A DNA stretch of 64,000 bases from Deltaproteobacteria bacterium (lineage in GTDB: Bacteria > Myxococcota_A > Polyangia > Polyangiales > Houyiibacteriaceae): contig JAXMNT010000004.1 in NCBI GenBank assembly GCA_034670305.1, positions 192,001-256,000 on the forward strand, in the 5' to 3' direction. The notes beneath the pieces were generated by a model, which was not told the origin of the DNA, searched no databases, and saw nothing but the letters and a program-made list of their open reading frames with translations. Of this stretch, positions 2,236 through 56,160 are shown piece by piece (position 1 is the first letter of the stretch; the number at the start of each line of letters is the position of its first letter). The position numbers were made by a program, and so were the translations under genes.

Positions 2236-3699
2236 ATGCAGATGCGGCGTACGTTCAACGTGTGGGGGAGCGCCTTGCTGGCGCTGGCGACGACTGTGGC
2301 GACGACGGGATGTGTGGAGCGTTCGCGCGAACTCACCCGCACCGAGCGCGAACAACTCGCGCAGTACGTCTCGGAGACGGCGACGACGCCGCAGCACGAG
2401 CTCGACATCTCGTTCGAGGACAAGGTCTTCCTGGTCGGCTACGACCTGAGCAGCGAGACGTGGACCCCGGGCCAAGAGATGACCATCACCTGGCACTGGC
2501 GCGTCGAACGCGCGCTCGAAGACGGCTGGAACCTCTTCACCCACGTGGCCGATGCGAACGACTCGAGCCGGCTCAACGAAGACGGCACCGGCATCGTGCG
2601 CGAGCTCTACCCGCCGGGCCGCTGGAAGGCCGGCGAGCACATTCGGGACCCGCAGCCGATCACGCTGCCCGCCGACTGGAGCGCACCGCAAGCGGTGGTC
2701 TACCTCGGCCTGTGGAACGGGCCGCACCGCCTGCGCATCACGCGCGGTGCGAACGATGGAGACAACCGCGCGCGCGCCGCCTCGATCCCGACCGGCGTGA
2801 GCGCCGCCAACACCAACCGTGCCCCGACCGCGCCGCAGGTTCCGTCGGTCGTCGCCAACGCAGTGGCGGACAGCGCCATCACGCTCGACGGCAACCTCGA
2901 CGAGCCGGCGTGGGTCGCCGCGACTGCGACGAGCCCCTTCGTCAACACCATGAGCGGCGGAGCGGCCGAGTTCCGCGCGACCGCGAAGGTGCTCTTCGGC
3001 GACGAACACCTGTACGTCGGATTCGTGGTCGACGACGACTTCCTCAAGAGTGAGTTCACCGACCGGGACGACCATCTGTGGGAAGCGGACTGCGTCGAGA
3101 TCATGGTCGACCCGGACGGCGACGGCCGGAACTACTTCGAACTCCAAGTGAACCCGCGCAACGCCGCGTTCGACACGCGCTACGACAGCCGCCGCAACCC
3201 CGGCCCGATCGGCCACGACGACTGGGACAGCGGCATCCGCTCGGCCGTTCAGGTGCGCGGCACGATCGACGACGACGAAGAAGACCAGGGCTACACGGTC
3301 GAGATCGCGATTCCTTGGACCGGCTTCGCGCAGGGCACACCGCCCGCGACCAAACCGAGCGCCGGCGATCACTGGCGCGTGAACTTCTACGTGATGGACT
3401 CTCGTGAAGAAGGCCAGCGCGCCGCCGGTTGGTCCGCGCCCCGCGTCGGCGACTTCCACGTGCCGGCCCGCTTCGGCCGCGTGAACTTCGGCACCCCGAC
3501 CGCCGCCGCGCCCACCGCCGCGCCCACCGCCGCGCCTGCCGCCGCCGGCCCCGCAGGCACGCCCATGCTCGCCCCCCAAGTCCAGCGCGCCCTCCAAGCC
3601 GTCCGCGCCCGCGAAGGCCAACTCCGCCAAAACGCCCTCGACCCCGACCGCGCCGCCCCCGGCGAGACGATTCGAAACGTCCCGACCGCGATGGAGTAG
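2236..3699 (+). CDS. Lipoprotein with CBM9-like (DOMON-like) carbohydrate-binding domain
   Basis: Signal peptide ending TTGC; ITLDGNLDEPAW, DCVEIMVDPDGDG, YFELQVNP, YTVEIAIPW, WRVNFY motifs; 8 nt after the ffh stop. Confidence 0.75.
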   Translation: MQMRRTFNVWGSALLALATTVATTGCVERSRELTRTEREQLAQYVSETATTPQHELDISFEDKVFLVGYDLSSETWTPGQEMTITWHWRVERALEDGWNLFTHVADANDSSRLNEDGTGIVRELYPPGRWKAGEHIRDPQPITLPADWSAPQAVVYLGLWNGPHRLRITRGANDGDNRARAASIPTGVSAANTNRAPTAPQVPSVVANAVADSAITLDGNLDEPAWVAATATSPFVNTMSGGAAEFRATAKVLFGDEHLYVGFVVDDDFLKSEFTDRDDHLWEADCVEIMVDPDGDGRNYFELQVNPRNAAFDTRYDSRRNPGPIGHDDWDSGIRSAVQVRGTIDDDEEDQGYTVEIAIPWTGFAQGTPPATKPSAGDHWRVNFYVMDSREEGQRAAGWSAPRVGDFHVPARFGRVNFGTPTAAAPTAAPTAAPAAAGPAGTPMLAPQVQRALQAVRAREGQLRQNALDPDRAAPGETIRNVPTAME

Positions 3700-3715
3700 C
3701 GACCCCGCGCGCGGC

Positions 3716-4058
3716 CGGATTCGGATTCGGATTCGGATTCGGACACCGAGGGCAAGGGCACGGGCAAGGGCAAGGGCAAGGGAGCTGCGGCATCCTCTCC
3801 TTCGGATTCGGATTCGGATTCGGATTCGGATTCGGATTCGGCTTCGGCTTCGGATTCGGCTTCGGGATCGGCTTCGGCATCGGCTTCGGCTTCGGCTTCG
3901 GCTTCGGCTTCGGTAGCAGCAGCAGCCGCAGAATCAGCCGCAGAATCAGCAGCAGAATCAGCAGCAGAACCAGCAGCAGAATCAGCAGCAGAACCAGCCG
4001 CAGAATCAGCAGCAGAATCAGCAGCAGAATCAGCAGCAGAATCAGCAGCAGAATCAGC
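3716..4058. repeat. Composite simple-sequence-repeat block filling a convergent intergenic gap
   Basis: (TCGGAT)n 3716-3743, (GGGCAA)n 3750-3782, (TTCGGA/TTCGGC)n 3801-3913, (AGCAGCAGAATC)n 3914-4058. Confidence 0.95.
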
Positions 4059-5457: not shown

Positions 5458-5471
5458 CGCGCCGTCATCCC

Positions 5472-6626: not shown

Positions 6627-6674
6627 CGAACCCGTCGCACGTGCACCAGGCCCGTGGTGGGCTTCAGGAAGCGG

Positions 6675-8168: not shown

Positions 8169-8275
8169 TTTCGCTTCTGCAGTTAGTTCTTTCGCACAAC
8201 TGGTGTCAACCATGACCCGCACCCGCGGTGCTGGGGTCGTTTGCCGGTGCGTGGCACACCTGATACGAGCGTTCA

Positions 8276-8923: not shown

Positions 8924-9084
8924 CAGGGCCACCGGCCAACGAATCGTCCAAATCCACCATCTTTTTCCAACCCGAACGTGTCCGGGGTACCGCTGCGCAG
9001 GGGTGGCGAGACCCGACCTGGACATCTTGGCAGTTGACTGCGGGTCGCCCGGCTTCCTAGGATTGGGGTCGACCTTGAGGACTT

Positions 9085-13128: not shown

Positions 13129-13150
13129 TCGCGGCGAGCCGCTTCGCGAA

Positions 13151-13338: not shown

Positions 13339-15522
13339 ATGCGTTCCGTCCTCTGTGTGTTGATGCTCGTCCTCGCCAGTGTGTTGCCCCGCGTGGGCAG
13401 CGCCCAGAGCGACGCGACCGAGCCGGCGTCCACCCCCAACCGCTTCGAAGCGCACTGGGTGGACGGAGAAGAGTCGGCTGCGTTGGCGGCTTTGCGGCTC
13501 GCCGAAGAAGAGATGTTCCGGCAAGTGGCGCAACCGCTGGTGGCCAGGGCCAGCGTGACGGTCGGCATCCCTCCGAGCGCGACCAGCGCTCCGGCGCACC
13601 GCACCGATCACCCGGCCGCGGTCGGCACCCCGCGCTGGCTCGAAGGACTCACGTTGCCGGATCTCCCGGTGCGGTTTCACGACCGCGTCGTGCGCTACCT
13701 CGAGTACTTCCGGGACTCGCGCCGTGGTCAGTCGTTGATGCGTGCATGGCTGCGGCGTTCGAGCCGGTACGGCGGCATGATCACCCAGACCCTGGAAGCA
13801 CGCGGCTTGCCCCGCGACCTGCGCTGTGTGGCGATGGCCGAAAGCGGATTCGATCCCACCGTCCGGTCCCACCGCGGCGCACTCGGCATGTGGCAGTTCG
13901 TGCCGCGCACGGGACGCGAGTACGACTTGAACTCGAACCGGTGGTTCGACGAGCGCATGGATCCCATCAAGTCGACCGACGCGGCCGCGCGCATGCTCGG
14001 CGACCTGCATCGACGGTTCGGAAGCTGGGAGCTCGCGCTGGCCGCATACAACATGGGCTACGGCGCCCTGCTTCGCGCCATCCGCAAGTACAACACCAAC
14101 GACTACTGGGTGCTCGCGGATCTGGAAGCAGGCCTCCCCTTCGAGACCACCATCTACGTGGCGAAGATCATGGCGTGTTCGGTGGTGATGCGAAACACCG
14201 AGACCTTCGGGTTCGGAGAACTCACCCGCGACCCGCCCCTCGAGGTGGAACCCTTTCATGTGGGCGGCGGCACGACCCTTCGGCAGATCGCGAGCGCCGC
14301 GTCGATGACGGTCGAGGAGATCTCGGCGCTCAACCCGGAGTTGCGCCGCGGGCGCACCCCACCCGGACGCGAAGGTTGGGACGTGCGGGTGCCCGCCGAC
14401 CGATTGGAGGCGTTGAGTGCGCGCTGGGCGCGGCGGCGCGCGCAAGACCATCCGACCCAGCCCTACGTGGTGCGCTTTGGCGAGACGGTGGCGATGATCG
14501 CACACCGGTACCGCACGCGAGAACGGGACCTGGTCGAACTCAACGGCATCCTCGACGACGAGACGATCGGTGCCGGCACCACGCTCCTGGTTCCGGCGGT
14601 CGAACCACGCGAAGAAGAGACGCCCGAAGAGGCGCCAGTGGTCGCGGTGCCGCAGGGTGTCCGCCCGCCCTCCGGCACGGTTCGAGTCATCTACCGCGTC
14701 TCGCGCGGCGACACGCTCTGGGAGATCGCGCGGTTCTTCGACACACGCGTGGCGGCGGTGGCGGAGTGGAACCAACTCGACCCGCACGCGACCTTGCACC
14801 GCGGCATGTACCTGCAGCTCTTCGTCTCGCGCAGCCGCGATCTGAGCCGTGCCATCGTGCTCCAGGAGAACGACGTGCGGCTCGTCACGGTGGGCACCGA
14901 GGCGTTCTTCGACCAACACGAAGAGGCGCAGGGGCGCGTGCGCTTCCGCTACCGCGTGGTGGAAGGCGACACGATCGCGGGCATCGCCCGGCGGTTCGGA
15001 CTGTCCACGGGGAGCGTGGCGCGCATCAACCAGTTCTCGCGGCGGACGACGTTGCAGATCGGACAGGAAGTGATCGTGTACGCGGACGAGGGCCGCGTGC
15101 CGGCGAGGTTCCGCCGGCGGAGTGCGGGGGATGCCGCGGCTGATTCTGATGCCGGCGCTGCTGCTGGGGGGGATGCTGATGCTGCGGCTGATGCTGCGGC
15201 TGCGACTGACGCTGAGGCTGAGGCTGACTCCGAAGCCGATGCCGATGCCGAAGCCGATGCCGATGCCGATGCCGAAGCCGATGCCGATGCCGATGCCGAT
15301 GCCGATGCCGATGCCGATGCCGATGCCGAAGCCGATGCCGACGCCGAAACCGATGCCGATGCCGATGCCGATGCCGATGCCGATGCCGATGCCGATGCCG
15401 ATGCCGATGCCGAGGCCGATGCCGATGCCGATGCCGAAGCCGAAGCCGACGCCCAAAGCGACGCCGATGCCGACGCCGGGTCTGCCGTTGCCGACACGAC
15501 CGTGGTGGAGCCGCGCGAGTGA
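13339..15522 (+). CDS. MltD-like lytic transglycosylase with four LysM domains and an (Ala-Asp)n tail
   Basis: Signal peptide; AESGF, GMWQF, LAAYNMG SLT motifs; LysM motifs such as [13 protein letters not shown] and [13 protein letters not shown]. Confidence 0.88.
15130..15478. repeat. In-frame hexamer array (GCCGAT)n preceded by a GCTG-rich block
   Basis: Reverse complement of the TCGGCA-then-CAGC arrays elsewhere; encodes ADADAD. Confidence 0.93.
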
Positions 15523-16757
15523 TCTCTCCGGCGGAGGCGCTTCGACGGATTGTTGGGGGGGCCGTGGCGCTCGAGGCGGAGGAGGTTGGGATCTCGGAGG
15601 CGGGGGGGCGGGTGTGTGCGGAGGCGGTGGCGGCGCGGATGGATGCGCCGGCGCTTGATGAGAGTGCGATGGACGGGTTCGCGGTGCGGGCGGGCGAGGT
15701 CATTGCGGCGACCGCCGGGCGGCCCGTCTTCTTGCCGCTTCACGGAGAGTCGCGGGCGGGCGGGCCGATGCCGCCCCCGCTGCCGGTTGGTCACGCGATG
15801 CCCACCTTCACCGGGGCACCCTTGCCCGACGGCGCGGACGCCATCGTGGTGCGTGAAGACACGCAGCGCATCTCGCGCGAAGGACTCGACGCGGTTCAGA
15901 TCCGGTTCGCGGCGCCGCGGCATCACCACGTGCGACGTCGAGCCGCGGACCTGGAGGCGGGTGCAACGATCGTGGAGGCCGGTCGGCGGCTCCATGCGGG
16001 CGCCCTTGGGCTGCTCGCCAGCCAAGGGATCGACCGGCTGGCGGTGCGCCGGGCCGCGCGCGTCCGAATCTTGGCGACCGGCGACGAACTCATTCCGCTG
16101 GGGACCCCGCTGAAGCCTGGCCAGCGCTACGACAGCAACGGCCCGATGTTGTTGGCCTTGTGCGCCGAGGTCGGAGCGTCGGCCTCCGTCGTGCCGACGA
16201 CCGGCGACGACCTGGGCGCGCTCACCGCGGCGGTGGCCGGTGCGATGGCAGAGTCCGAGGTGTTGATCACGACGGGCGGCGTGAGCGTGGGTGACCACGA
16301 CCACACCCGTGCCGCGTTCGAAGCCGCGGGGGCGACGCTCGACTTCTGGAAGATCGCGATCAAACCCGGCAAGCCGCTGGTCTTCGGACGAACCGAGACC
16401 GGCGGGTTCGTGATCGGCCTGCCGGGCAACCCGGTCAGCGCCTTCGCGACCTTCCATGCGTTCGTACGGCCGCTCTTGCGGGCCCTCGAGGGCGACGCGG
16501 CGCCCTACCCGCCGGTCCTGCGGGCCAAACTTGCGGGACCCACCAAACATCGGCCGGGCCGACTCGAACTCGCCCGAGTTCGCGTCAACGGGGGGCGGGC
16601 GGTGCTGCATCCGCATCAGGGATCGGGCGACCTCAGCAGCCTCGGCTGGGCCGACGGGCTCGCGGTGTTGCCCGCCGACGCCGGCGATCTGGTCGCCGGG
16701 ACGAGCGTGGACGTGCTCCGCCTGGACGGTGGTCAGCCCGAGCCCTGGATCCTCTGA
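15519..16757 (+). CDS. moeA: Molybdopterin molybdotransferase MoeA
   Basis: [49 protein letters not shown] overlap with the upstream stop. Confidence 0.95.
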
Positions 16758-16781
16758 GCGCTTGCGAAGCGAGCCAGGCCA

Positions 16782-16858
16782 CAAGATCGGGTGGCCCGCA
16801 AGATCGGGTGGCCCGCAAGATCGGCCCGCAAGATCGGGTGGCCCGCAAGATCGGGTGG
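16782..16858. repeat. Tandem 17-bp repeat CAAGATCGGGTGGCCCG (five units, two truncated)
   Basis: Direct read; each full unit holds the mini-hairpin CGGG-TGG-CCCG; no spacers. Confidence 0.9.
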
Positions 16859-17083
16859 AAGGGAACGCCCCGTTCGTGCGTTCTTTGTTCGTGCACACTG
16901 GCGTTGTCTCGATGCGACTTGGTTCCGGTCGGTTCTCAGCTATTTTCTCAAGAGAACCAAGGGATTGCCGGATCTGGCGTGTCCAAGGAAGACCTGCGGA
17001 GCGAGGGCACGCATGCCCCCAATCCGTCGTACACTGAACCACCACGGAAACTTTCGTCTCCGTTCCGCGTCCCAACCTCACCC

Positions 17084-26312: not shown

Positions 26313-26846
26313 GTGGGTCGTTCGCGCACCGATGTTCTTCCGGCGGTTTCGGCGCCGGTGCTGGATGTGCACGAGGCCTACGAGCGCCATGCGGAATTCG
26401 TGTGGCGGTCGCTGGCGCGGCTTGGATGTGCACCTGCGGACCGGGCGGACCTGCTTCAGGAGGCCTTCGTGGTGCTCCACCGGCGGCGGGCCGATTGGGA
26501 CGGGCGTTCGGTGCGGGGTTGGCTGTGGGGGATCTGCGTTGGACTGATGCGGAACCACCGGCGGCGGGCGTTTCGTCGGATCGAGACTTTGGTGGCCGAT
26601 GTGGACGTTGCGGGCGCCCCGCCAGTCGATGTGATCGAGCGGAAGCGACGGATGGCGAATGGGCAGCGCGCGCTCGCGGAGCTGGAGGTCGAACAGCGGG
26701 CGGTGTTCGTGATGTTCGAGATCGAGCAACTGAGCGGCAAACAGATCGCAGACTCCTTGGAGATCCCACTCGGCACCGTGCACTCGCGTCTCTTCTCCGC
26801 CCGCAAGACGCTCGCGCGGCGGCTGCAGGAGTTCGAAGATGAGTGA
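26313..26846 (+). CDS. ECF RNA polymerase sigma factor
   Basis: FVWRSLARLG, DLLQEAF, WLWGI region 2; IADSLEIPLGTVHSRLFSAR region 4. Confidence 0.9.
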   Translation: MGRSRTDVLPAVSAPVLDVHEAYERHAEFVWRSLARLGCAPADRADLLQEAFVVLHRRRADWDGRSVRGWLWGICVGLMRNHRRRAFRRIETLVADVDVAGAPPVDVIERKRRMANGQRALAELEVEQRAVFVMFEIEQLSGKQIADSLEIPLGTVHSRLFSARKTLARRLQEFEDE

Positions 26847-33674: not shown

Positions 33675-35843
33675 ATGGCAGAGGACGGAGGCGTCTCCCT
33701 CATCCGGGACATCGTGCTGCTCGCGGAGCGGCGCGCGACGGGGGTGCTGGAGATCGACGGTCCCAACGGGGCCGTGCTCCACGTCTACTTCATGGACGGC
33801 TGGCCGGTCTTCGCGGAAGCCGGCACGCTCGGCGACTCTCTCGGGCGCGTGCTGCTGACTGAGGGACTGCTCGACGAGTCGCAGTACGCGGACGTGGTGC
33901 GCATGATGACCGACTCGCTCGTCGACAACGAAGCGATGCGGTTCGGGGAATGCGCGGTCTCCCTTGGCTTCGTGACGCCCGACGAGGTCACACTGGCACT
34001 GGCCCGTCAGGTTCGGCGCAAAATCGTCAGCTGCCTCCAGTGGACGCGGGTCGAGCGCGGGTTCGACCCCGACGTGCGCGCCCTCGGCAAGAGCAACCGG
34101 TACCCCTGCGCACCCAAGCCGCTCCTCGTGGAGGGGATTCGAAAGTTCTTCGACTCGACCCGTCTGCTCCCGGTCCTCGGCCCCCATCTGCAGAAGTACT
34201 TGCTCTTGGAAGGCCGGGCCGACGAGGTCGCGACCAGGTGCGGGTTCTCGGACCGGGAAGAGGCGTGCCTGACGACCATGGATGGCACCGCGACGTTGGC
34301 GGACGTCCTGACCAGCGGAGGCCCCGACGGCCTCTCCGGGGCCGAGACGGCGTTGCTCCTCGGTTCGCTCGTCTTGCTCGAAGAAGTCTCCGTCCACGAC
34401 GCGCCGGCGGCGCGTTCTGACCACCCCACTCCGCAACCGGTGGCCGAGCCCTTCGTCGACATCCTCGAGACCCTGGGCGCCCGCCGCGACACCACCCCAG
34501 CGCCGCCGCCCGCCCTCGCAGAACTCCTGGAGCCCTACGACGCGGCAGCAGCCGACCTCGCCACCCCATCCACCCCTCTCCCAGCCGCGCCCGCCACCAT
34601 CGCCGAACCCCGCCCCCCGACATCCGCGTCGACCGCGGCTTCGGAATCGGCTTCGGAATCGGCTTCGGAATCGGATTCGGAGTCGGCGTCGGAGTCGGCT
34701 TCGGCTTCGGAGTCGGCTTCGGAATCGGCTTCGGCTTCGGCTTCGGCTTCGACTTCGGCTTCGGAATCGGCTTCGGCTTCGGCTTCGGCTTCGGCTTCGG
34801 AGTCGGCTTCGGCTTCGGCCTCCGCTTCGGTATCGGCTTCGGTATCGGAATCGGCTTCGGAATCGGCTTCGGAATCGGCTTCGGAGTCGGCTTCGGCCAC
34901 GGTCGCGCCCCGCCGCCAACTCGCCAAGATCAAGCTCACCGTCTCGGCACGGCGCAAACCGGTGCCCACGGACGCGCCCGCAACCACCGCGCACGACGCC
35001 GATGCCCGTCGTCCGAAGACGGAGGAGTCACAACCCCTCCCTCCTCATCCTCCCCGCCAGCGACTCAATTCGGACTTCGTGGACGCCTTCATCCGGCAGT
35101 TCGGACCCGGGGCCGCCCCGCCCGCGAAACCGGCGCCGGAGCCCGAGGTCGAGGCTCCTTCGACTTCACCGCAGGGTGACGAGGAAGGGGGCTGGGACTG
35201 GGACGACTTCCAAGCGGCCGAGGAGGCGCCACAGGAACCCGCCGAGCCGCGGCCTCGGGTCAAACGCAAGGACACGGCCCTCGCCGCCGCGCGACGACGG
35301 GCCAAACAGCTCGCGAAGATGGCCGCCTCCGCCCGCCCCCGGACGCCGCCTGCCGGGATCCCGGCCCACCAGGGTCCTCCCCAGCGGTCGCGGCGCAAGC
35401 TCCGGCAGTCCCAGATCATCCGGAAGAAGCGCATCCTCGCCGAGAAGGAGTTCCGGACCGCGCGCGCGCACATTCGGCGGGCCGAGTGGCCGGTCGCAGA
35501 GAAGCTGCTCCAGCGCGCGCTCGAGTACGAGCCCGACCAAGTCGAGTACGAGATCCATCTCGTGTGGGTTCAGTTCCGCCTTCGCCCAGAGGACCCGGCC
35601 GCCCGCACACAGTTGGAGTCGGTGGTCGCCCGCGCCTTCGCCCAAGACCGGCGGATGGCGTTCGCCCACTACGTCCAGGGTCAGATCGCGCTGCTCGACG
35701 AGGACGAAGAAGGCGCCTGGAAGGCGTTCCGAAATGCGATGCTGCTCGACCCGGCGTTGCGGGACGCCGAACGCCACTTCCGCCTCATCGACATGCGGAC
35801 CGAGAAGGCGGACTGGAAGAAGAAGCTCCGCAAGAAGAAGTAG
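33675..35843 (+). CDS. DUF4388/PATAN-like N-terminus, low-complexity linker and C-terminal TPR protein
   Basis: [25 protein letters not shown]-domain; Ser-Ala/Ser-Glu insert; TPR-like end. Confidence 0.7.
34638..34897. repeat. In-frame hexamer array (TCGGCT/TCGGAA)n encoding SA/SE
   Basis: Direct read. Confidence 0.93.
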
Positions 35844-42773: not shown

Positions 42774-43010
42774 CCGGCTTCGGCATCGGCGTCGGGCTTC
42801 GGCTTCGGCATCGGCATCGGCCTCGGCCTCGGCATCGGCATCGGCTTCGGCATCGGCATCGGCATCGGCATCGGCTTCGGCATCGGCTTCGGCATCGGCT
42901 TCGGCGTCGGCTTCGGCGTCGGCTTCGGCGTCGGCATCGGCTTCGGCGTCGGCATCGGCCTCGGCTTCGGCGTCGGAGTCGGCTTCAGCGACAGCCTCGG
43001 CGTCGGTTTC
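42774..43010. repeat. Intergenic hexamer array (TCGGCN)n
   Basis: Direct read; lies between the groEL terminator and a convergent stop. Confidence 0.93.
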
Positions 43011-43031
43011 AGCTCTCGGCGTTGGCCCCGC

Positions 43032-46000
43032 TCAGAACGTCTTGAGCACTTCGACGAGCGCAGCGAGGCGCGCGGACGCGTCTTCGTCGCCGATGGCGCC
43101 GAGGAGCGATTCGATCTCGGCGCGCGCGTCGGCGCAGACCGTTCGCAGGCTTCCGACGTCCCGCTCGAACATGGAAGCGCGCGAGAGCGCGTCTTCGAGC
43201 GCCGCCTCACGGTCCGCCAGGCGTTTTTCGAGCCGGCCGAGTTCATCCACCGCGTCGGGGGTCTGCTGGAGACTCGCGACCTGGTCTTCGGAGGCGCGCC
43301 GCGCGTCCTGCGCGTGGCGCAGCTCTTCGCGAAGGCGCTCCACCCGCTCCTGCAGTTCCAGCAGTGTGCGACGCGCGTCTTCGTCATCGCCCGATCCGCT
43401 GCCGCCTTCGGCCAACCGGCGCTCGAGCGCGCGGATGCGGTCGTTGCGTTCCTCAAGCTGAGCCGTCAACGATCGGAGCAAGGTGTCCTTGTCGTCGATC
43501 TCGCGGCGCAGCCGGTCCGAGCCATCCTCGGTCGCGTCTGGCGCTTCCAGGCCCACCGCGGTGATGTCGGATCGGACCGGTTGCTGTGGTTGCTGCTCAG
43601 CCCGCCAGGCGTCGAGCGTACGACGCAGCAGGTGCAGTGACTCCACTTGCGCGTCGCGATCTCGGAGCAGGGTGTCCACGCGCTGGACGAGCGCATCGCG
43701 CTCCGCCTGCAGGCCCTGCAGTTCCGAGTCCGCCCCGTCGACCGCTTGGTCGCGTGCCGTTTCCGCTGCGGTGAGCGCGTCGACCGCTTCCTTCAGCGCC
43801 GCCTCGGCCGCCAACTTGTCCGCCTGGGCTGCGTCGTTCGCGGCTTGATGATCTTTGGCCGCCTTGCGCAAACCGTCGATCTCACGCGCCAGCGCGTCCG
43901 CGCGCTCCACCGCGCCGGAGGCATCGACGAGCGCTTCGCGGAGCCGGTCCCGTTCGTCGCGCACCCGCTCGAGCCGCTGGTCGAACGTGCGGCGCTGCTG
44001 CTCTTCCTCGGCCAGGTCCATCTGCAGTCGAGTGACCAGCGCATCGCGCGACGCGACCGCCGCCACCAAATCGCGGGCCCGCGCTTCGGCTTCGCTCTTC
44101 CCCATTTGGAGATCGCCGGCGGCCAGGGTCAGTTCTGCTTCGGTGGTCCGCAACGTCGCGACTTCATCCCGCAGACGATCGAGTTCATCGAGCGTCTTGG
44201 GCGAGACCGGGGCTTTCGTCAGCGCAAGCAACGACGCCTCGCGATCCGCCAGGCGCAGCCGCAGCCCTTCCCGCTCCCCGCGCAATCCCTGAAGTTCGTC
44301 GCTGACGCGTGCGAGCTCGCCTTCGATCGCTTCGTCGGTGCCGGTCGCGGATTCTCCGCTGGCGGTGCCTGGCTCCGCGCTGAGCATCGCGATGCGCATC
44401 TCGTACCCCATGCGGAGTCCTTCGACGCGGGTCTCGAGATTGCTGAGCTGAGCCATCAGCCGCAGCGTCTCGGCGCGGGCTCGGTCGCGCTCTTGCTCCG
44501 CGTCCGCGCGGCCTTCGCGGGCGAGCAGGAGCTGCCCGGTGAGCTGTCCGACGCGGGCCGAGAGCTTTCGCTCCGACTCCCGCAGCGCCGCCACTTCGGC
44601 TTCGGAACGCTGGCTCGGCAGACTGGGGGTGGGGGCACCGCGCTCGCGGATCATCGCGAGCTCGAGCTGCTCGCGCGCGTCGCCGAGAGAAGCCTCCGTC
44701 TGGCGCAGCTTCTCCACCCGATCTTCGAGATCGAGTTTGGCCACTGCCAGGCGCGCTTCCGCGAGCGCTCGAAGTTCTTCGATCTCCGCCGCGCGCGCTC
44801 GAAGCCCACGGACCCTTCCCGAGAGCTCTGCCTGTGCCGTACGGAGCGCTTCGAGCGCTGCGTCTCGTTCGAGCAGCGTCGTGCGCAGCTCGTCAACCGA
44901 CAGCTCCGCTTCGGTGCGCTCGAGCTCCCGGGTCAGTCGGCTGACCGGCGCGCCGGCGGCTGCCTCGCCCGCGGTCTCGCCAGCGGCCACTGCGTCTGCC
45001 AGCACCGCGCTTCGACGACCGAGCTGATGCTCCCGCAGCTCTTCGACCACATCTCGGAGCACGAGCCGGACCGAACCGACCTCCGCTTCGAGCGCCCGCA
45101 CATGAGACGCGCGGTCGCGGAGTTTTTGTTCGAGTTCCGCCACATCGGACGCCACGGAGAAGTCTTCGACCCGCGCGTCGGCCGGGGCGTCGGGCCGCAG
45201 CCCCGCCACCACGTCGGCCACCACATCGCTTACCGGCGCGACGTCGCCGAGATCGATCTCGGCGCTGTCGAGTGCTGGCGGTGCATCCGTCAACGCGGCC
45301 CGCGCTTCGGCCAGTTCGCCTTCGGTGGTGATCAGCCGAGCTTGCGCTTGCTCCAAACGGCTCTCGGCGCGGTCGAGTGCTTCGCGAAGCGCATCCACCT
45401 CGCGACGGCGCGCCGTGAGCGCTTCCTCCATCTCGGAAGGTTCCGTGGCGTCGGCTTCCGAGGCCTCGTCGTTGGGGAGTTGCACGACGAGGTACGGATC
45501 GGTCGGAGGCAGCTCGTCGGCTGCCATCCCGAACACGAACGTCAGGTCCTCGGTCTCGCTGCCGAGCAGCGACCCATCGACGCACACCTCTTCGGCATGG
45601 CCCGCGGTGAGGTCCGCCAGCGCCACGCCCCGAAATGCGGCCTGACCCAGCACCCGGACTTCTCGGAACGCGGTCTGGAGCTGGCTCTGCAAGTTGGCGA
45701 GCGCCGCGTCGTCTCCGACCCGGGTGCCCACCACCAGCACACCGTCCGCCAGGATCGCCGAGAGCTCGGCAAACCGATCCTCCGGATGATCGAGACACTC
45801 GATGTCCGCCACGACCACGAGATCGAAGCTGCCCGCTTGGAATGAGAGGCGGCCGGGGCGGTAGAGCGACACGCGGGCGGCCCCACCCCGTCGGCGGCGG
45901 CCACGGCCCGAGGTGTCGAGCACCCGGACCACGTCGGCGAAGGACGCGAGTTGATCCGCACCTGCGCCGGCGTCACCGATCCACAACACCCGCCGTCCGC

Positions 46001-46067
46001 TCGCCAAGGGCGCAAGAAACACGGAGAGCGCGAGGTCGTTCATCGGAGGTGGCCCGAGCGTGGTCAT
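43032..46067 (-). CDS. Degenerate class I methyltransferase-like domain fused to a very long coiled coil
   Basis: [28 protein letters not shown], then several hundred aa of E/R/A/L heptads; start ATG 46067 or 46043. Confidence 0.7.
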
Positions 46068-46221
46068 GCGCGGGGGTAGTAATAGTCGCGTCTGATTCGC
46101 AGGGTCAACGACGACGTTGACGGATCGCCCGTTTGTTTTCAGGCTCCGGACCGCAGTCGCTGGCCCCACATCGCGATTCCAGAGGTTGGGGAGGAGGCCG
46201 GAGGGGCCTTGCCCCGCACGC

Positions 46222-46249
46222 CCGAGGGGGATGCGCCCATCCCCCTCGG
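46222..46249. repeat. Perfect 12-bp hairpin in a divergent intergenic region
   Basis: CCGAGGGGGATG-CGCC-CATCCCCCTCGG. Confidence 0.7.
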
Positions 46250-46335
46250 ACGACAAACGCCCGCCGAATCTCCGAAGCCGCACTTCTCGACCGTTTGGGG
46301 TCGCGGGCACCGAGGTCGGTCGCTACATTTCGCCC

Positions 46336-49300
46336 GTGACCGCCGCCACCCGGGTCCAGCGCCAGCTGGGCCGATTTCGTCGACGCGCGCGCGCCCTCGT
46401 CGGCGTGCGTGCCGTGCTGGTCGCGCTCGCGATCGGTGCGGTCGGGTTCTTCGCCGCGAGTTGGATGGTCGGGCCGACCATCGGCTGGGCCGGCAGCATC
46501 ACCGCGTGGACGCTCGTCTCCGGTGCGTCACTCGCTGGATTCTGGTGGGCCATCCGACCGATCCGCGGCCTCGGAGGACCGGGCGCGACTCGACTGATCC
46601 GGCCCGTGGACGCGTCCCTCGCGTCCATGACCCGCTCCGCGCTCGAGTTCGCGAGCCCGTCGGTGCCGGCCGACTCGAGCGATCTCGTGCGCGCCCACCT
46701 GCGTTCGGTGGACGTGCGCCTGGCGGCGTTGGCACCAGAAGTCGTCGTGCCCGTTCAGACGGCCGATCGCCGCTGGCTGCTCGGCGCGGTGCTCGTGCTG
46801 GCCCTGTCGGTCGGTGGATTGTTCGGCGTCGACCGAGCCATGTCCGGCGCCTTCGCGCTGCTCAACCCGGCCGCTCGCGAAGGCACGACCCGCGTCGCCA
46901 GCATCGGCGCCGACGTGACCGCCCACCTCAGGTTCCCCGCGTACATGGGCCGGGACCCCGTCGACGTCGAAGGCGCCCGCATCGAAGCACCGCGCGGCAC
47001 CCTCGTTCGATGGTCGATGCGCGCGCGCGTGCCGCTCGTCTCGGCCACGCTCACCACACCCGAAGGGCCCGTCCGGCTCTCCGCCGACCCCGCCAACGGA
47101 CCGGAACGTTGGGGCGCGAGTTTCGTGGTTCGGGAATCGGGTCCGTTGACCTTGGTCGGCGTGGACACCGAAGGCGACGCGCTGCAAGACGCGACCGTGC
47201 GTGCGCTCGTTGTCGAAGTCGACGCCGCACCGAACGTCCGCATCGTCCGCCCAGAAGAAGACTTGGTGCTCGAACCCGGGTCCACGATGCGGTTCGAGGT
47301 CGAAGCCAGCGACGATCACCAACTCGGCGACGTAGAGCTGGTCGTGGGCATGCCCGGCGGTGCGGAACGCCGCCTTCCCTTTCCCGCATTCGACGTGGAC
47401 GCGAATGGTGCACTGCAGATCACTCGGCTCGGCCCCACCAGCGGTTCGGCTCCGCTTGATCCGAACGCGCCGCCGGACGACTTGCTCCGCGACCTCCTCG
47501 GCACGACGCCGACCCAGCCCGCACTGCCTTCCTTTCGTGGGGAGGTCTCGCTCGACCCGATGGCGCTTGGGGCCCGCGCCGGCGACATGCTCCGGGTCTG
47601 GGCGGAAGCGAGCGACCGCGACGACGTGGCCGGGCCGAACATCGGGCGCTCGGGCGAGATTCGGATCGAGGTGGCGTCCGAAGCCACGCATCGAGAAGAA
47701 CGCATCGGCACACTGAGCGAGGTCCTGGATGCGGCACTCGCCGCGCTCGCCGATCGGCTCGAGCGGCCGGTGCCGCGCGCCGAAGCGGAAGCCCGCACCC
47801 GACACGAACGCGTCGACGCTTCGGCACAGTCGCTCGCGGACGGACTCGAGACGCTTCGTGAGATGGGCCTGGACCCGACGCACGCAGCGCTCGTGCCGGA
47901 GATGATCCGAGATCTTCGCCGCGCGCGCTTCGCGGAGAAGCGGGTCGTGGGCACGACCCTTGGCCCGCACGCGGCTCGAGAGCGGGTGGACGCCGCGCTC
48001 GTCGAGGTGCTCGAAGATCAGTCGCTCCAGCTCTCCGACCTGCTCGGCGCCGCGAAGATCGAAGACGCCGCGGCGATCGCACGCGAGCTCGAAGACCTGC
48101 GGCGGGAGATGGCGTCGCTGCTGGCCGAGGTCCGCAGGACCGACTCCCCCGAAGCGCGGGAAGCTCTGATGGCCGCGTTGCACCGCGCGCAACGCCGCAT
48201 GCAGGAGTTGCGGGCTCGCCTCGCCGCGATGAGCGAAGACGTGCCCGGCGAGTTCCTGAACATGGATGCGCTGCCGCAAGACGAAGCCGAAGCTGCGCTC
48301 GACGGCCTCGACGAAGCGCTGGAGCGCGGAGACATGGACGCCGCGGCCCGGTACCTGCTCGACCTCGAGCGGGAGATCGACGCCCTCGCCCGCTCGTTGA
48401 ACTCGGCCGAAGAAGGATTCGAAGCCGAGCGGTTCGGCCCGCGTCAACGCGCGATGGCGGATGCGCTCGACCGCCTCGCGGGCATCGAAGCCGAAGAGCG
48501 CACCCTTGCGGAGCGTTCCGACGAAGTCCGGCGCGCGGCCGCGGAGAGCGCGCTCGAAGCCGCTGGACAGAGCACCGCCGACTCCGCGCGTGCGTTGGCC
48601 GAGCGGGCCGCCGAGGTGCGTGCCGCGCTGGACGAGGTGCCCACTGCGCCACTGGGTCCGGTGGACCGAGAGACACTCGAGCGGGCGCGGCAGCGGCTGA
48701 TCGACACCGAAGACGCGCTGCGGGCCGGCGACCTCGGCGAAGCGCGGGCCATGGCCGAGGAGGCCGGCAGCGATGCGACCCGGTTGGCGCGCGATCTCGA
48801 ACTCTCGTCGATGATGTTCGCGGGTCGTCGGGGGGAAGTGCGGCGCGCGGCGCAGGAGGCCGCCGAGGCCGCATCGCAGGCGCGCGAACTCGGGGAACGC
48901 CTCGACGACTCGTTGCCTCGACTGAGCGAGTACATCGATCGCGCCTCTCGGGAACAGCTGCGCGCCGATGCGGAGCGGCAGCAGCGGGCCAACGGCGCCG
49001 CGGAGAGTTTGCAGGAAGCGTTCAACGCCGAGCCGGACGGAGCACCGCTCTCACCGGAAGGTGCCGAAGCGATGGAAGCGATCCGCGAATCGATGCGGGC
49101 GGCACGCCAAGCCCTGCAGCGGGGCGAGCCGGTCGGCGCTGCGCGGGCCCAGCACGAAGCGGCGCGCCGGCTGACCGAGCTCCGAGAAGAACTCGAGAAG
49201 GATCAGTCCCCGAGCGGCGGCGGTGGCGAGGGCGACGGCGAACGGCAACCGACCGAACGGGTCCGCATCCCCGGCGCGGAAGAAGCGGAGGGGGTCTCCG

Positions 49301-49395
49301 AGCTTCGACGCCGACTCCTCGATGCGATGCGCGAAGGCGCCCCACGTGGCTACGAGGACGCCGTCCGCCACTACTACGAAGGACTGCTCCGATGA
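46336..49395 (+). CDS. DUF4175-like membrane-anchored Ig-like plus coiled-coil protein
   Basis: N-terminal TMs, FPAYMG, DAAPNVRIVRP, ASDDHQL, AEASDRD..GPNIG, long coil, APRGYEDAVRHYYEGL; GTG start inferred. Confidence 0.72.
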   Translation: MTAATRVQRQLGRFRRRARALVGVRAVLVALAIGAVGFFAASWMVGPTIGWAGSITAWTLVSGASLAGFWWAIRPIRGLGGPGATRLIRPVDASLASMTRSALEFASPSVPADSSDLVRAHLRSVDVRLAALAPEVVVPVQTADRRWLLGAVLVLALSVGGLFGVDRAMSGAFALLNPAAREGTTRVASIGADVTAHLRFPAYMGRDPVDVEGARIEAPRGTLVRWSMRARVPLVSATLTTPEGPVRLSADPANGPERWGASFVVRESGPLTLVGVDTEGDALQDATVRALVVEVDAAPNVRIVRPEEDLVLEPGSTMRFEVEASDDHQLGDVELVVGMPGGAERRLPFPAFDVDANGALQITRLGPTSGSAPLDPNAPPDDLLRDLLGTTPTQPALPSFRGEVSLDPMALGARAGDMLRVWAEASDRDDVAGPNIGRSGEIRIEVASEATHREERIGTLSEVLDAALAALADRLERPVPRAEAEARTRHERVDASAQSLADGLETLREMGLDPTHAALVPEMIRDLRRARFAEKRVVGTTLGPHAARERVDAALVEVLEDQSLQLSDLLGAAKIEDAAAIARELEDLRREMASLLAEVRRTDSPEAREALMAALHRAQRRMQELRARLAAMSEDVPGEFLNMDALPQDEAEAALDGLDEALERGDMDAAARYLLDLEREIDALARSLNSAEEGFEAERFGPRQRAMADALDRLAGIEAEERTLAERSDEVRRAAAESALEAAGQSTADSARALAERAAEVRAALDEVPTAPLGPVDRETLERARQRLIDTEDALRAGDLGEARAMAEEAGSDATRLARDLELSSMMFAGRRGEVRRAAQEAAEAASQARELGERLDDSLPRLSEYIDRASREQLRADAERQQRANGAAESLQEAFNAEPDGAPLSPEGAEAMEAIRESMRAARQALQRGEPVGAARAQHEAARRLTELREELEKDQSPSGGGGEGDGERQPTERVRIPGAEEAEGVSELRRRLLDAMREGAPRGYEDAVRHYYEGLLR

Positions 49396-50972
49396 GGCGC
49401 GCCGCCCAGGTGTTCGTCTTGTTCGCGCTGTGCGCGGTCTCGGGCCCCGCGTGGGCGCTCGGCCGCGCCGACGTGGCAGCCCTCAACGCCGGCCATCTGG
49501 CGCTGCGCGAACTCCGGGTAGAAGACGCTGCCCGCAGCAGCGCGGCCCTCCTTGCCCGCCTTCCCACGGACCCGGATGTGCTCTCGCTCGCCGCCCAAGT
49601 CGACTTCCACCAGGGGCGCTACGCCCTGGCCGTGGAGCGTCTCGAAGCGTCGCTCGCATCACGCGCCCCGCGGACCGGAGACGAGGGCGACCCGCGCGCT
49701 TGGCTGCTCGAGTTGTTCCGCTCCACGCACGACGCGACGGCTTCGTTCGTGGAAGCGCGCAGCGACGACGGTCGCTACATCGTGCGCCACGCGCCCGGCC
49801 GCGACCGCCACCTGGTCCCCTACGTCCTGCGGGCACTCGAGGGCTCCGACGCCGCGATGCAGGATGAACTCGGCATTCGACTCCCGGGACCGATCCGCGT
49901 CGAGATCCTCCCGAACGCAGACGAGCTCGCGAAGGTCAGCACGCTGACCGAGGAGGCCATCGCCACCACCGGCACCATCGCGCTGTGCAAGTGGGACAAG
50001 CTGATGGTGACCAGCCCACGGGCACTGCTCCGCGGCTACCCATGGATGGACACCATCGCGCACGAGTTCGTGCACCTCGCGCTCAGCCGCGCGTCGCACG
50101 ACCACGCGCCAGTCTGGTTTCAAGAGGGCATGGCGAAGTTCCTCGAACGCCGCTGGCGTGAACCCGAGGCGACCGAACACTTGCACCCGGCGGCCCTCGG
50201 CCTGCTCGTCCGCGCGGTGCGCGAACGCGGGCTGCTTCCATTCGACCGCATCCATCCCTCGATCGCGCTCTTGCCCTCTCAGGAAGATGCGGCGCTCGCG
50301 TTCGCTCAGGTCTCGACGTTCGTCGCGCGGTTCCACACCGCGTACGGCAAAGCGGGCATCCAGGCGGCCATCGCGCGGATGGCGGAAGGCGAAGACGCCC
50401 GGGTCGCCCTCGCTGGCGTGGCGTCGGTTTCCTGGGAAGAACTCGAGTCCCGATGGAAGCGCTCCCTCCAGGCACTTCGCGGAGGCGACGCACCCCCGCT
50501 TCTCCCGCGACAGCTCCGCGGCGGCGCCTCCGAAGAACAGGCCGAGGCCCAACAGGTGGCGCAGGCGGCGCGCCGCAACTTGCGGCTCGGCGACCTCCTC
50601 TGGGCCCGCCGGCGCTACGGCGCGGCTGCGGTCGAGTACGGCCGGGCGTTGGAGGCGGCACCGGGCGACCCACGCATCGCTTCGCGCATGGCCGCCGCCT
50701 CCCTCGAAGCGGGCCGGCCCGCCGACGCGGTGGCCGCGCTCGCGCCGATCGTCGATCGGTACCCGGATCACGCGCCGAGCTTGGCGGTGCTCGCCCGCGC
50801 GTACCGAGAGACCGGGGACCGCGAACGCGCCGAAGCCACCGCCCGCGCGGCGCTGCGACTCAACCCCTTCGACCCCTCCCCCCACTGCGACCTGGCCGCC
50901 GTGGCCACCGACGACGCCACACGCGCCCTAGAAGCCCGCCAGTGCACCGCGCTCGGCGGCTCGATTCCCTAA
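49392..50972 (+). CDS. Secreted TPR / peptidase MA-like gluzincin
   Basis: Signal peptide; [18 protein letters not shown]-like flanks; ATGA overlap. Confidence 0.8.
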
Positions 50973-50980
50973 GGGCGTTC

Positions 50981-51235
50981 GGCAAGCGGCAGCGGCAGCG
51001 GCGTCGGCGTCGGCGTCCAGATTCGGCTTCGGCTTCGGATTCGGCTTCGGCATCGGCTTCGGCATCGGCTTCGGCATCGGCTTCGGCATCGGCTTCGGCA
51101 TCGGCTTCGGCATCGGCTTCGGCATCGGCTTCGGCATCGGCTTCGGCATCGGCATCGGCTTCGGCATCGGCTTCGGCATCAGCATCGGCATCGGCTTCGG
51201 CTTCGGCATCGGCATCGGCTTCGGCATCGTCGGCT
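50981..51235. repeat. Intergenic hexamer array (TCGGCT/TCGGCA)n preceded by GCGGCA units
   Basis: Direct read. Confidence 0.93.
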
Positions 51236-51337
51236 GCTTGTTCGCGCACTCCAGGTCAAGGGCCGAACGGAAGTTGCGCAGTGAGTTCGCCCGTTCCGCG
51301 ACTTGTGCAGGGCGACCGGGCGTGCGTAGATCGGGTC

Positions 51338-54193: not shown

Positions 54194-56160
54194 GCGCCGA
54201 ACCGAAGCGGCGGCGCCTCCGGCTGGCCTCCAAAGCCGCCGCGCTGGTTCTCGGCGCCCTCCTCCTCGCCGCGGGACTCGCGGTGCACAGCGCACGCCTG
54301 AACGACAGGCTTCAATCCGCAGAGCCAAACGCCTTCGACGCGGATGCGTTCGTCGGAAGCGGCCAGTGCCGCCGATGCCACGAAGACCACTGGCAGTCTT
54401 GGCACGCGACCTTCCACCGCACGATGACCCAGGATGTGCAGGGCGAGACCACGGTGGTGTTGGGCCGCTTCGACGGAAGCGCGATCGACTACTTCGGCTG
54501 GCACGCGACGATGCGTGAAGAAGACGGCCAACCCCACATCGAGATCCACGCGCCCGACGGCACGACGACGCGCCATCTCGTCGAGCGCGCGGTGGGCTCG
54601 CGGCGCATGCAGCAGTACCTCACCCGGTCCGCCGAGCGGCCGGCCGAGTACGAGCGGCTGCCGATCGCGTGGCACGTGGAAGAGTCGCGGTGGATGCACA
54701 TGAACGGCGCGTTCCTCACGCCCGACCCAGCGGAAGACGTCGCCTCGACCGAGGACTTTCACCGGCACGTCACCCGCTGGAACGACAACTGTGTGTTCTG
54801 CCACAACGTCGCGCCCAACCCAGGACGGCGGCCGGACGGCCATTTCGAGACCGACGTCGCGGAGCTGGGCGTTGCGTGCGAGGCGTGCCACGGCGCGGGC
54901 GCCGTCCATGCGGAGCGCAACAGCGATCCGGTGCGCAGGTACCTGCTGCACCTCTCAGAAGCGCACGACCCGACCATCGCCAACCCGGCGACCATGCCCG
55001 AAGGACGGCAAGCCGATGTGTGCGGCCGCTGTCATGGGCAGCGCCTCACCGACGACATCGATCGAACCCTCGCGCTCGGCGACCGCTTCGTCCCCGGACA
55101 AGACCTGGCCGTGCACAGCGAACCGCTCTGGCGCGACACCACCCTCAACGGCGTAGACGGAGTGTTCGCGGCCCGCTTCTGGGAGGACGGCACCCCGCGA
55201 CTGACCGCTTACGAGTACCAAGGACTCACCCAATCGGTGTGTGCGCAGCGCGCGCCGCTCAGCTGCACGACCTGCCACGGCATGCACGAGGGCGACCCCC
55301 GCGGCCAACTTCGACCGGCCGCCGCGGAAGCACCCGACACCATGTGCAGCGACTGCCACGACGCCGACTCCCTGAGCGCCGGCCACGTCGCCCACGAAGC
55401 GCAGGCGCACGTCGACTGCATCGACTGCCACATGCCTCGCATCGTCTACGGAATCATCGACGCCCACCGCAGCCACCGCATCGAGCGCCCCTCCCCCGCC
55501 CGCGCCGCCCGCTTCGCCCGCCCCGACCCCTGCACCCTCTGCCACACCACCCGCTCCCGAACCTGGGCCGAGCAAACCCAACAGGAGATGTGGGGCCCGG
55601 ATCCGGAAGCGGCTTCGGCGTCGGCTTCGGCATCGGCTTCGGCTTCAGCTTCGGCGTCGGATTCGGATTCGGCTTCGGCTTCGGATTCAGCGTCAGCAAC
55701 AGACTCCGCAGCAGACGCAGCAACAGCAACAGCCGCAGCAACAGCCGCAGCCGCAGCAACAGCCGCAGCAACAGCCGCAGCAACAGACTCACCGCCAGCA
55801 ACAGCCTCGGCCATCGCCTCCCTCCCCGAAGTCCACCGCGCCCTCCTCGGCGGCGACCCCATCGAACGCGCCCTCGCCGCCGCCGCACTCGGCCGCCGCC
55901 CCCAGTCCCCCGCCGACCGTGGCATGCTCGCGATGGTGCTCGCGCGCGACCCCTACCCGGCTGTCCGGCGCATCGCCTGGAGAAGTCTGCGTGCACCGCT
56001 GGGGCTCGAGTGGTCGGCGTTCGATCCCACCGGGACGCCCTCCGAGCGCGCCGCGCAAGTCCGCGCATTGCCCCTCGGCGAAGTCGCCGGCCCCGACCCC
56101 GTCCTCGCAGCGCAGCTTCGCTCCCACGCCTCCTCGCGCGCGATCGCGATCGGCGAATGA
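54190..56160 (+). CDS. Octaheme c-type cytochrome with low-complexity insert and short HEAT-like C-terminus
   Basis: N-terminal signal/TM; eight CxxCH motifs (CRRCH, CVFCH, CEACH, CGRCH, CTTCH, CSDCH, CIDCH, CTLCH); GTGA overlap. Confidence 0.9.
   Translation: MSAEPKRRRLRLASKAAALVLGALLLAAGLAVHSARLNDRLQSAEPNAFDADAFVGSGQCRRCHEDHWQSWHATFHRTMTQDVQGETTVVLGRFDGSAIDYFGWHATMREEDGQPHIEIHAPDGTTTRHLVERAVGSRRMQQYLTRSAERPAEYERLPIAWHVEESRWMHMNGAFLTPDPAEDVASTEDFHRHVTRWNDNCVFCHNVAPNPGRRPDGHFETDVAELGVACEACHGAGAVHAERNSDPVRRYLLHLSEAHDPTIANPATMPEGRQADVCGRCHGQRLTDDIDRTLALGDRFVPGQDLAVHSEPLWRDTTLNGVDGVFAARFWEDGTPRLTAYEYQGLTQSVCAQRAPLSCTTCHGMHEGDPRGQLRPAAAEAPDTMCSDCHDADSLSAGHVAHEAQAHVDCIDCHMPRIVYGIIDAHRSHRIERPSPARAARFARPDPCTLCHTTRSRTWAEQTQQEMWGPDPEAASASASASASASASASDSDSASASDSASATDSAADAATATAAATAAAAATAAATAAATDSPPATASAIASLPEVHRALLGGDPIERALAAAALGRRPQSPADRGMLAMVLARDPYPAVRRIAWRSLRAPLGLEWSAFDPTGTPSERAAQVRALPLGEVAGPDPVLAAQLRSHASSRAIAIGE
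55611..55805. repeat. In-frame bipartite array: (TCGGCT/TCGGAT)n then (ACAGCCGCAGCA)-type units
   Basis: Direct read; encodes SASA then ATAAA. Confidence 0.9.

Follow-up and report, generated by a model that had tools for sequence, protein, structure and literature searches.

Arrays of the hexanucleotide (TCGGNN)n in the genome of a Deltaproteobacteria bacterium (Myxococcota_A; Polyangiales; GenBank assembly GCA_034670305.1) are flanked by halos of strand-asymmetric composition, in which silent sites of neighboring genes gain C and lose G on the strand that reads TCGG. The halo was confirmed genome-wide: it is tied to array orientation, decays with distance, is independent of gene strand and roughly independent of replichore, and involves both transitions. 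It probably has a mutational origin, namely resynthesis or exposure of one DNA strand anchored at the arrays. The original prediction was drawn from a stretch of 64,000 nt (contig JAXMNT010000004.1, positions 192,001 to 256,000 of the forward strand; hereafter, the window), in which the plus strand was described as C-rich next to plus-oriented TCGG arrays and G-rich next to the single reverse-oriented array. Here, third-position skew was computed against distance from arrays across the whole source genome (G000; 7.93 Mb, 105 contigs, 68% G+C), where the skew was found to follow array orientation in genes of either strand.

TCGG arrays and the composition of their flanks

Arrays were defined as at least four TCGGNN units, and a genome-wide search of G000 returned 663 of them (349 on the + strand and 314 on the - strand), with a median length of 144 bp. 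The most frequent unit is TCGGCT, which, as RNA, amounts to a repeated CUUCGG tetraloop motif. Arrays are often compound and polar, with runs of GCGGAA, GCGGCA, or CCCGTG located 5′ of the TCGG core and runs of GGGCAC, TTCCGC, or GGGCAA located 3′ of it. They lie mainly at the 3′ ends of genes, with a TCGG-sense gene upstream of 370 of the 526 intergenic arrays, while 108 arrays are within genes. Codons within 300 nt of an array occur in 1,016 of 5,266 called genes.

Genes were called with the genome's own dicodon model (6,125 calls, 5,504 kept), and all period-6 DNA was masked. Of the 629 arrays with 20 or more fourfold sites within 300 nt, 511 have a shift toward C and away from G on the TCGG strand; the mean shift is +0.192 (s.e. 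0.009), compared to a maximum of 0.04 among 10,000 sign flips. Far from arrays, the sense-strand (C-G)/(C+G) at fourfold sites is +0.07 to +0.10. For genes on the TCGG strand it rises to +0.56 at 50-100 nt 5′ of an array, and for genes on the opposite strand it falls to -0.35 at 100-150 nt. Read on the TCGG strand in successive 50-nt bins, the shift is 0.26, 0.41, 0.37, 0.29, 0.23, 0.20, and 0.15 on the 5′ side, and 0.24, 0.26, 0.16, 0.08, and 0.02 on the 3′ side. The halo is maximal at 50-150 nt, halved by ~250 nt, at most 0.1 past 400 nt, and faded by ~800 nt.

The polar component of the shift declines from 0.29 through 0.22, 0.12, and 0.08 to 0.05 out to 700 nt. At 20-200 nt it amounts to 0.25-0.30, equally for sense genes, antisense genes, and around in-gene arrays, where it is nearly the same on both sides. 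Intergenic arrays have a longer 5′ tail, with a second, 'toward-C' term of ~0.1 (C-rich heading toward the array). All eight fourfold codon families shift, codon positions 1 and 2 barely do, and the halo is weakly larger with longer arrays (rho 0.15). The most extreme gene segments (40 fourfold sites, shift of at least 0.7) number 54, and 32 of them lie within 300 nt of an array, as do 4.9% of the 29,738 segments overall; 31 of these 32 are shifted in the predicted direction. The other 22 are more than 300 nt from any TCGG array and are possibly traces of lost arrays.

Several trivial sources of skew were rejected. Gene ends without an array have a skew of +0.13, compared to +0.48 with a same-strand array and -0.02 with an opposite one, and the corresponding values for gene starts are +0.08, +0.15, and -0.15. 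With Pro and Ala codons removed, the skew is +0.56 (same-strand) and -0.17 (opposite) versus +0.21. The original prediction had stated that vanishing at fourfold sites, an explanation by Pro/Ala content or gene-end position, or a lack of relation to array orientation would count against it; the skew is instead strongest at fourfold sites, persists through both controls, and tracks the orientation of the array. On 150 randomly chosen arrays, a gene caller blind to third-position C versus G reproduced the result (+0.30, +0.15), and gene strand was discarded as a cause, the halo being the same on the TCGG strand whichever strand the gene uses. Replichore was likewise discarded, with a halo of 0.141 at arrays that oppose the background skew (n=88) and 0.183 at those that agree with it (n=188), although replichores in G000 were inferred from local skew rather than from a closed chromosome. 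A sequencing artifact is unlikely because codon third positions carry nearly all of the shift; in addition, contigs of four runs equal window positions 43100-50970 without a differing letter, these runs being from one study that is possibly the source and thus not independent. Other hexamer elements (8-54 elements) and REP-like elements (185) in G000 showed gene-end C-richness and no clear polar halo.

Substitution spectrum

Twofold sites shift together with fourfold ones. In same-strand genes, the log-odds are +0.7 to +0.9 for C/T and +0.5 to +0.9 for A/G; genes on the opposite strand mirror these values. The order of bases at fourfold sites of the TCGG strand is C > A > G ~ T, T being depleted as much as G. 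Since both transitions shift, the GCCGA strand gains G and T, and the halo is a G+T versus C+A skew. Third-position GC and TA skews are correlated near arrays (r 0.53, 677 windows) and hardly so far from them (0.09, 25,217 windows). The 'C loss on the GCCGA strand' originally proposed therefore describes only part of the change: at twofold sites of that strand, the A-to-G and C-to-T shifts are of similar size, a result not predicted by plain cytosine deamination. The TCGG-strand context profiles of sense genes and of antisense genes are alike (r=0.90 over 9 contexts), indicating a DNA-level effect. The amino-acid response is weak, with Gly at 8.4% and 9.9%, Val at 7.8% and 9.0%, Pro at 6.8% and 5.7%, and Thr at 6.2% and 5.3% in same- and opposite-strand genes, respectively.

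Two specific sources were rejected on the basis of this spectrum. Copying of the array into its flank through a quasi-palindrome is not reflected in the ranking of 5-mer contexts, which shows no preference for the reverse complement of the array. A pure C-to-G transversion by DnaE2 would not shift twofold sites, which shift as well; the accessible part of PMC7198004 does not contain the G:C to C:G signature attributed to ImuC.

Arrays and halos in related genomes

No same-genus genome is present in GTDB, and the best match in a metagenome scan has 28-34% identity. The array pattern has 8,815 matches in G000, 1,063, 969, and 526 in three of 30 relatives, and <100 in the others; a stricter pattern is present in 37 of 301 genomes of the class. 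For each relative, the excess of C over G on the TCGG strand was taken at 30-200 nt from arrays, with overlapping loci dropped; 5′ and 3′ values are given below after the loci and matches sampled.

G012 (62 loci, 73 matches): -0.22, +0.18
G320 (29 loci, 51 matches): -0.17, +0.15
G209 (19 loci, 20 matches): -0.20, +0.05
G017 (28 loci, 66 matches): -0.08, +0.11
G057 (18 loci, 18 matches): +0.02, +0.09
G026 (28 loci, 159 matches): -0.04, -0.02, no halo despite many arrays
G190 (11 loci, 12 matches): +0.04, -0.30, few arrays, cassette genes included
G147 (8 loci, 9 matches): +0.22, -0.38, few arrays, cassette genes included

Thus, the skew is polar in G000 and changes sign across the array in two relatives. 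In the complete genome G012, the sign switch is found on both replichores and for both orientations, and gene-position controls are flat. Such a switch would be the expected trace of break resection or of gaps behind a stalled polymerase; by symmetry, it is indistinguishable from a rule on transcription toward or away from the array.

The moeA gene, which adjoins the reverse array of the window, is preceded in G012 by an array (L003:2766-2898) with the same position and orientation as in G000, the two proteins being only 49% identical, so that the array is either long-lived or repeatedly gained at this place. The start of moeA is C-rich in G012 (+0.54) and G-rich in G000 (-0.64), and the sign of the skew is therefore not fixed by the repeat. 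Orthologs of moeA without an array are mostly flat (range -0.36 to +0.54), and 0 of 19 reach -0.64. For one of three skewed loci, a genus-wide ortholog search found only 2 of 17 genomes, and a fourth locus, purH-purD, has little skew.

Array units themselves decay asymmetrically: among variant units within G000 arrays, G3 is lost 191 times versus 58 times for C2, with the sign of the halo. This bias was not counted as support, as G026 has it (32 versus 4) without a halo, and it may reflect selection on the motif.

Comparison with known systems

The closest likeness is to GRINS, in which intense G+T/C+A skew occurs inside working bacterial genes, is linked to antibiotic-synthesis genes, and is tied to gene conversion, its cause being called unknown by the authors (PMC8256042, 2021, as far as its accessible text goes, here and below). 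Both systems have correlated GC and TA skews in functional genes, strongest at third positions, with correlations of 0.53 in array flanks versus 0.09 far from them, and of 0.70 versus 0.09 for GRINS. Both have Gly and Val raised on the G+T strand and Pro, Thr, and His on the C+A strand, and both have abrupt sign switches, as in G012. In contrast to GRINS, array halos span ~300 nt in mostly single-copy DNA (531 of 569 flanks), and the place and sign of their skew are set by an adjoining short oriented repeat, an anchor that the accessible GRINS text does not name. GRINS are duplicated at >80% identity, and a copy of at least 150 nt at 80% was found for only 38 of 569 5′ flanks, 23 of them beside cassettes (described below); GRINS exceed 500 bp, and the halo shift halves by ~250 nt. 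The GRINS skew thresholds are both passed by 85 of the 531 single-copy flanks (mean GC skew -0.106, mean TA skew -0.076) and by 1.9% of 3,000 control windows, with 300-nt windows used here compared to a 150-nt sliding mean in that paper. The halo is thus a GRINS-like skew but is not GRINS, because the skewed DNA is short and single-copy.

According to the 3R hypothesis (McDonald et al. 2011, PMC3114760), repeats raise nearby substitution rates via error-prone polymerases after fork stalling. That work concerns homopolymers and rates within ~150 nt, and its accessible part reports no strand- or orientation-dependent composition; array halos add orientation and strand. The GGGAATC heptamers of Xanthomonas and GGGGA(C/T)T heptamers of Nostoc (PMC4692102) resemble TCGG arrays as many short oriented arrays, mostly intergenic and on both strands, and the word 'skew' is absent from the accessible main text. 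The Xanthomonas unit contains TCGG as well; at 50 Xanthomonadales loci with GGGAATC arrays, a 3′ shift of +0.18 was short (350 sites, 22 arrays, gene ends uncontrolled) and the 5′ side was flat. Mismatch-repair-defective Escherichia coli shows the same transition pair, with A and C lost from one strand, in the accessible part of Foster et al. (10.1101/346874). Compared to that leading-strand skew, the array halo is local (hundreds of nucleotides), several-fold stronger, independent of the fork, and devoid of the NAC/GTN context.

No report of skew halos at bacterial short tandem repeats was found in a literature search that did not cover most subscription journals, nor was anything found there on myxobacterial hexanucleotide repeats, TIGR02436, or four-helix bundles with such repeats; the GRINS supplement may hold single-copy examples. 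Long simple-sequence repeats in prokaryotes were reportedly described by Mrazek et al.

A short oriented repeat present in 663 copies that predicts the location, sign, and decay of the skew provides a defined anchor for GRINS-type skew, so that its cause could be tested with a single repeat and a single reporter, and the relatives offer natural contrasts (polar, sign switch, none). Codon use in about one-fifth of G000 genes is partly set by an adjacent repeat, and halos can mislead analyses of codon bias, horizontal transfer, and origin prediction.

Four-helix-bundle cassettes and candidate enzymes

A search for words shared among flanks brought up a multicopy cassette that carries a four-helix-bundle gene. 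G000 has 49 matches to TIGR02436, and 29 of 38 tblastn hits are within 600 nt of an array; the one copy tested matches PDB 2GSC (E 8e-06). This four-helix-bundle/23S rRNA intervening-sequence family (TIGR02436; XCC0516, PDB 2GSC) is presumably related to Avd, the accessory protein of diversity-generating retroelements (DGRs). Copies adjoin arrays in G000 and in relatives, and counts of arrays and four-helix-bundle genes are correlated (rho 0.70 across 30 related genomes, which as kin are not independent). The skew is a possible readout for these cassettes.

Cassette genes are G+T-rich on the sense strand, with C at 0.23, G at 0.49, and T at 0.18-0.27, versus 0.48, 0.41, and 0.06. Family-B cassettes (e.g., L395) have this composition despite a same-strand array just downstream, where host genes are C-rich. 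Both GRINS skew thresholds are exceeded by 11 of 33 full cassettes (~548 nt), and family-B copies have a median identity of 0.77, flanks included. Changes among cassette copies polarized against the family consensus were mixed, at few sites. Four-helix-bundle gene pairs in G190 (L263, L268) and G147 (L257, L267) have one strand C-rich across both genes, with C45/G10 and C14/G37 on opposite strands, so that skew within these cassettes follows the strand and not the gene.

Among candidate enzymes, G000 encodes two DnaE2 error-prone polymerases (L397 and L398, on contigs C5 and C8), both above the NF004225 cutoff, and a DinB-like motif is also present. Its three reverse transcriptases score best with retron models, below the cutoff. 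One of them (L273:1279-2598, contig C10) is directly followed by a TCGG array; the two others follow SWIM-like or unknown genes. A DGR was rejected as the source, given that only retron-like reverse transcriptases were found and that the changes comprise C/G and both transitions; template/variable repeat pairs were not searched for. A Y1/RAYT-like nuclease was rejected as the nicking enzyme: of the 11 Y1 matches, a single one lies within ~1 kb of a TCGG array, their own codons are unskewed, and no Y1 match was found in G012, where halos are present. Y1 nucleases and retron-like reverse transcriptases are thus present in G000 without being tied to arrays as a class.

Origin of the halo

We favor mutation over selection as the origin of the halo. 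In the proposed mechanism, arrays would be fixed, oriented sites where one of the DNA strands undergoes repeated opening and resynthesis, and a strand-asymmetric substitution bias would accrue over ~300 nt on each side, with a weak tail to ~800 nt. The GCCGA strand would move toward G and T and the TCGG strand toward C and A, and the genome-wide pull to high G+C would turn most of this bias into a C/G swap at silent sites. The strand may be opened when arrays, which are also the flanks of multicopy four-helix-bundle cassettes, undergo repair or recombination, and the geometry would depend on the lineage, being polar in G000 and changing sign at the array in two relatives. Resynthesis of the GCCGA strand with low fidelity (G placed opposite T, T opposite G) is a tentative candidate for the immediate cause, and damage to this strand while single-stranded is a more doubtful one. 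It is improbable, but would be of wider consequence, that arrays dock a dedicated, strand-specific DNA-rewriting activity, either encoded by the multicopy Avd-like cassettes or acting together with them, which would open or re-copy one strand at several hundred places in the chromosome and have recoded silent sites of ~1,000 genes; started at larger repeats, such an activity would be the cause of the GRINS skew.

The strand-specific mutagenesis of the original prediction gains indirect support from the context profile, from rtcA, and from divergence. When near-array copies were compared to paralogs far from arrays, changes on the 5′ side were G>C 101 versus C>G 62, compared to 780 versus 756 in a far control. 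In a set of 15 genomes from another family, rtcA is preceded by an array in two genomes, where codons 1-70 have C5/G41 and C6/G41, compared to C26/G21 and C27/G17 in the nearest outgroups (C>G 13-15 versus 1-2), so the skew is derived; a second gene of this set has the same, weaker trend. Fourfold divergence between the two array-bearing genomes is 15.6% near arrays (122 of 781) versus 11.0% deeper in the same genes (229 of 2,089), and 16.5% versus 13.3% when all distal sites are considered; the excess is found in 11 of 18 genes, and sites are not independent. Higher divergence near arrays is the opposite of what purifying selection would produce.

Other observations weigh against a mutational origin anchored at arrays. 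The divergence excess is modest and comes from another family, in which polarized changes pooled near 8 flanks are balanced on the stem (C>G 32, G>C 33). The four runs of G000 contain no variants, and the 5′-NAC/GTN context of uncorrected replication errors is absent from G000 flanks. G026 has many arrays and no halo, the sign varies among genomes that share array units, and arrays without a cassette show just as much skew as those with one (only 6-10 cassette flanks).

Selection on nucleic-acid composition through synonymous codons, for Rho-loading-like sites or for low self-structure beside the structured repeat RNA, is an unlikely alternative that accounts for several features. The shift is dominated by C and G; gene ends without arrays are mildly C-rich on the sense strand (+0.18 over the last 17 codons), as are sequences before other repeated elements in any orientation; a 'toward-C' term adds to the polar term at intergenic arrays; and arrays are mostly at 3′ ends in the TCGG sense. 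However, half of the effect is a gain of G+T on the mRNA strand of antisense genes, and the C-rich strand loses T, unlike a Rho site, which is pyrimidine-rich. Divergence near arrays is higher rather than lower, and the sign flips among relatives.

Still less probable is strand-polarized gene conversion, in which one-strand invasion started by arrays, between strains or between copies, and unrepaired C-C and A-C mismatches would add C and A to the invading TCGG strand with the mutation rate unchanged. C-C mismatches are poorly repaired, and this process predicts the observed spectrum, with C/G strongest and both transitions weaker. Arrays also flank near-identical cassette copies and are thus sites of DNA exchange, and the GRINS skew is tied to gene conversion in the accessible part of PMC8256042. 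Nevertheless, the donor would have to be another strain, since the genome has just one copy of 531 of the 569 flanks.

Reverse causation, with arrays arising or inserting where strand skew pre-exists, is very improbable: it is in line with the extreme segments located away from arrays and with G331, an array-less genome of the rtcA set in which rtcA is G-rich throughout, but not with the mostly flat array-less moeA orthologs or with a halo that peaks beside the array and decays on both sides. Replication-fork polarity, with arrays as primase or loading sites, is scarcely credible, as is sequencing error after GGC-rich repeats: arrays do lean toward the background skew (392 versus 245; contig rho 0.54) and the halo has the sign of the usual leading-strand G+T skew, but arrays against the background keep nearly the same halo, adjacent arrays agree in orientation in only 287 of 573 pairs, the G012 pattern is found on both replichores, and sequencing error would not spare codon positions 1 and 2.

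Arrays and flanks in the window

The window holds six TCGG arrays, one of them reverse-oriented. The five 60-nt counts of the original prediction are exact (C33/G14 at 3601-3660, C39/G8 at 34561-34620, C33/G12 at 50861-50920, C37/G11 at 55501-55560, and G35/C12 at 15601-15660), although these segments had been chosen by eye and 34561-34620 is a Pro/Ala-rich linker. The 300 nt on either side of each array were therefore retested, with no windows picked by eye, by counting C and G at fourfold sites of the TCGG strand. The main features are listed below.

3420..3699, + strand: halo at the 3′ end of a CBM9-like gene (fourfold C54/G12)
3716..3913, + strand: intergenic compound hexamer array with CGGATT, AGGGCA, and CTTCGG blocks and the TCGG core on +
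to 4058: AGCAGAATCAGC block, an extension of the first compound array
14930..15160, + strand: halo in a LysM/SLT gene ahead of the reverse array (sense G-rich; C28/G11 on the TCGG strand)
15230..15478, - strand: reverse array, GCCGAT/GCCGAA on +, forming the in-frame Ala-Asp/Ala-Glu tail of the LysM/SLT gene
15519..15938, + strand: moeA halo (fourfold C8/G36 in codons 1-70, C12/G24 in codons 70-140, C80/G84 in the remainder)
34340..34635, + strand: halo 5′ of the third array, within a DUF4388 gene (C43/G21; partly Pro/Ala linker)
34636..34897, + strand: in-gene TCGG array
42775..43020, + strand: intergenic TCGG array past the groEL terminator (3′ flank C20/G28, no shift)
50720..50972, + strand: halo at the 3′ end of a peptidase-MA/TPR gene (C34/G20)
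50987..51229, + strand: intergenic TCGG array
55315..55609, + strand: halo within a multiheme cytochrome c gene, on the 5′ side of the last array (C38/G5)
55610..55688, + strand: in-gene TCGG array, with a CAGCAA/CAGCCG block after it that ends at 55806
55810..55990, + strand: halo 3′ of the last array, in the multiheme cytochrome c gene (C37/G7)

Two of the 12 flanks have no shift, namely those 3′ of the arrays at 3721 (C13/G16) and 42799. Among the others, the 5′ flank of the reverse array has C34/G14 in the TCGG-strand reading, and the 3′ flanks of the third array and of the array at 50987..51229 have C26/G18 and C11/G5, respectively. The groEL flank (C29/G10) is uninformative as a halo, groEL being C-rich farther off as well (C58/G18).

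The G-rich segment at 15601-15660 does encode the conserved N-terminal domain of MoeA, as proposed (gene 15519-16757; PF03453 on residues 2-170), and the atypical codons pointed out there are borne out in the first 80 codons: GGG accounts for 7 of 9 Gly-family codons (genome share 0.18), CTT for 3 of 4 (0.058), GTT for 2 of 9 (0.036), GAT for 2 of 3, and AGT and TGT for 1 of 1 each.

Other elements of the window include a REP-like word with 196 genome copies, followed by a 17-bp tandem repeat (16763-16858), together with a C-rich stretch (17016-17162) and no TCGG array. A short multicopy element, to which many other contigs align, lies between divergent genes (46185-46260), and the 5′ part of a probable extracytoplasmic function sigma factor gene is G-rich with no array near (26469-26581). 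A long Gln-Gly repeat (CAGGGT/CAGGGC) at 18416-18810 is part of a 694-aa protein without a Pfam match.

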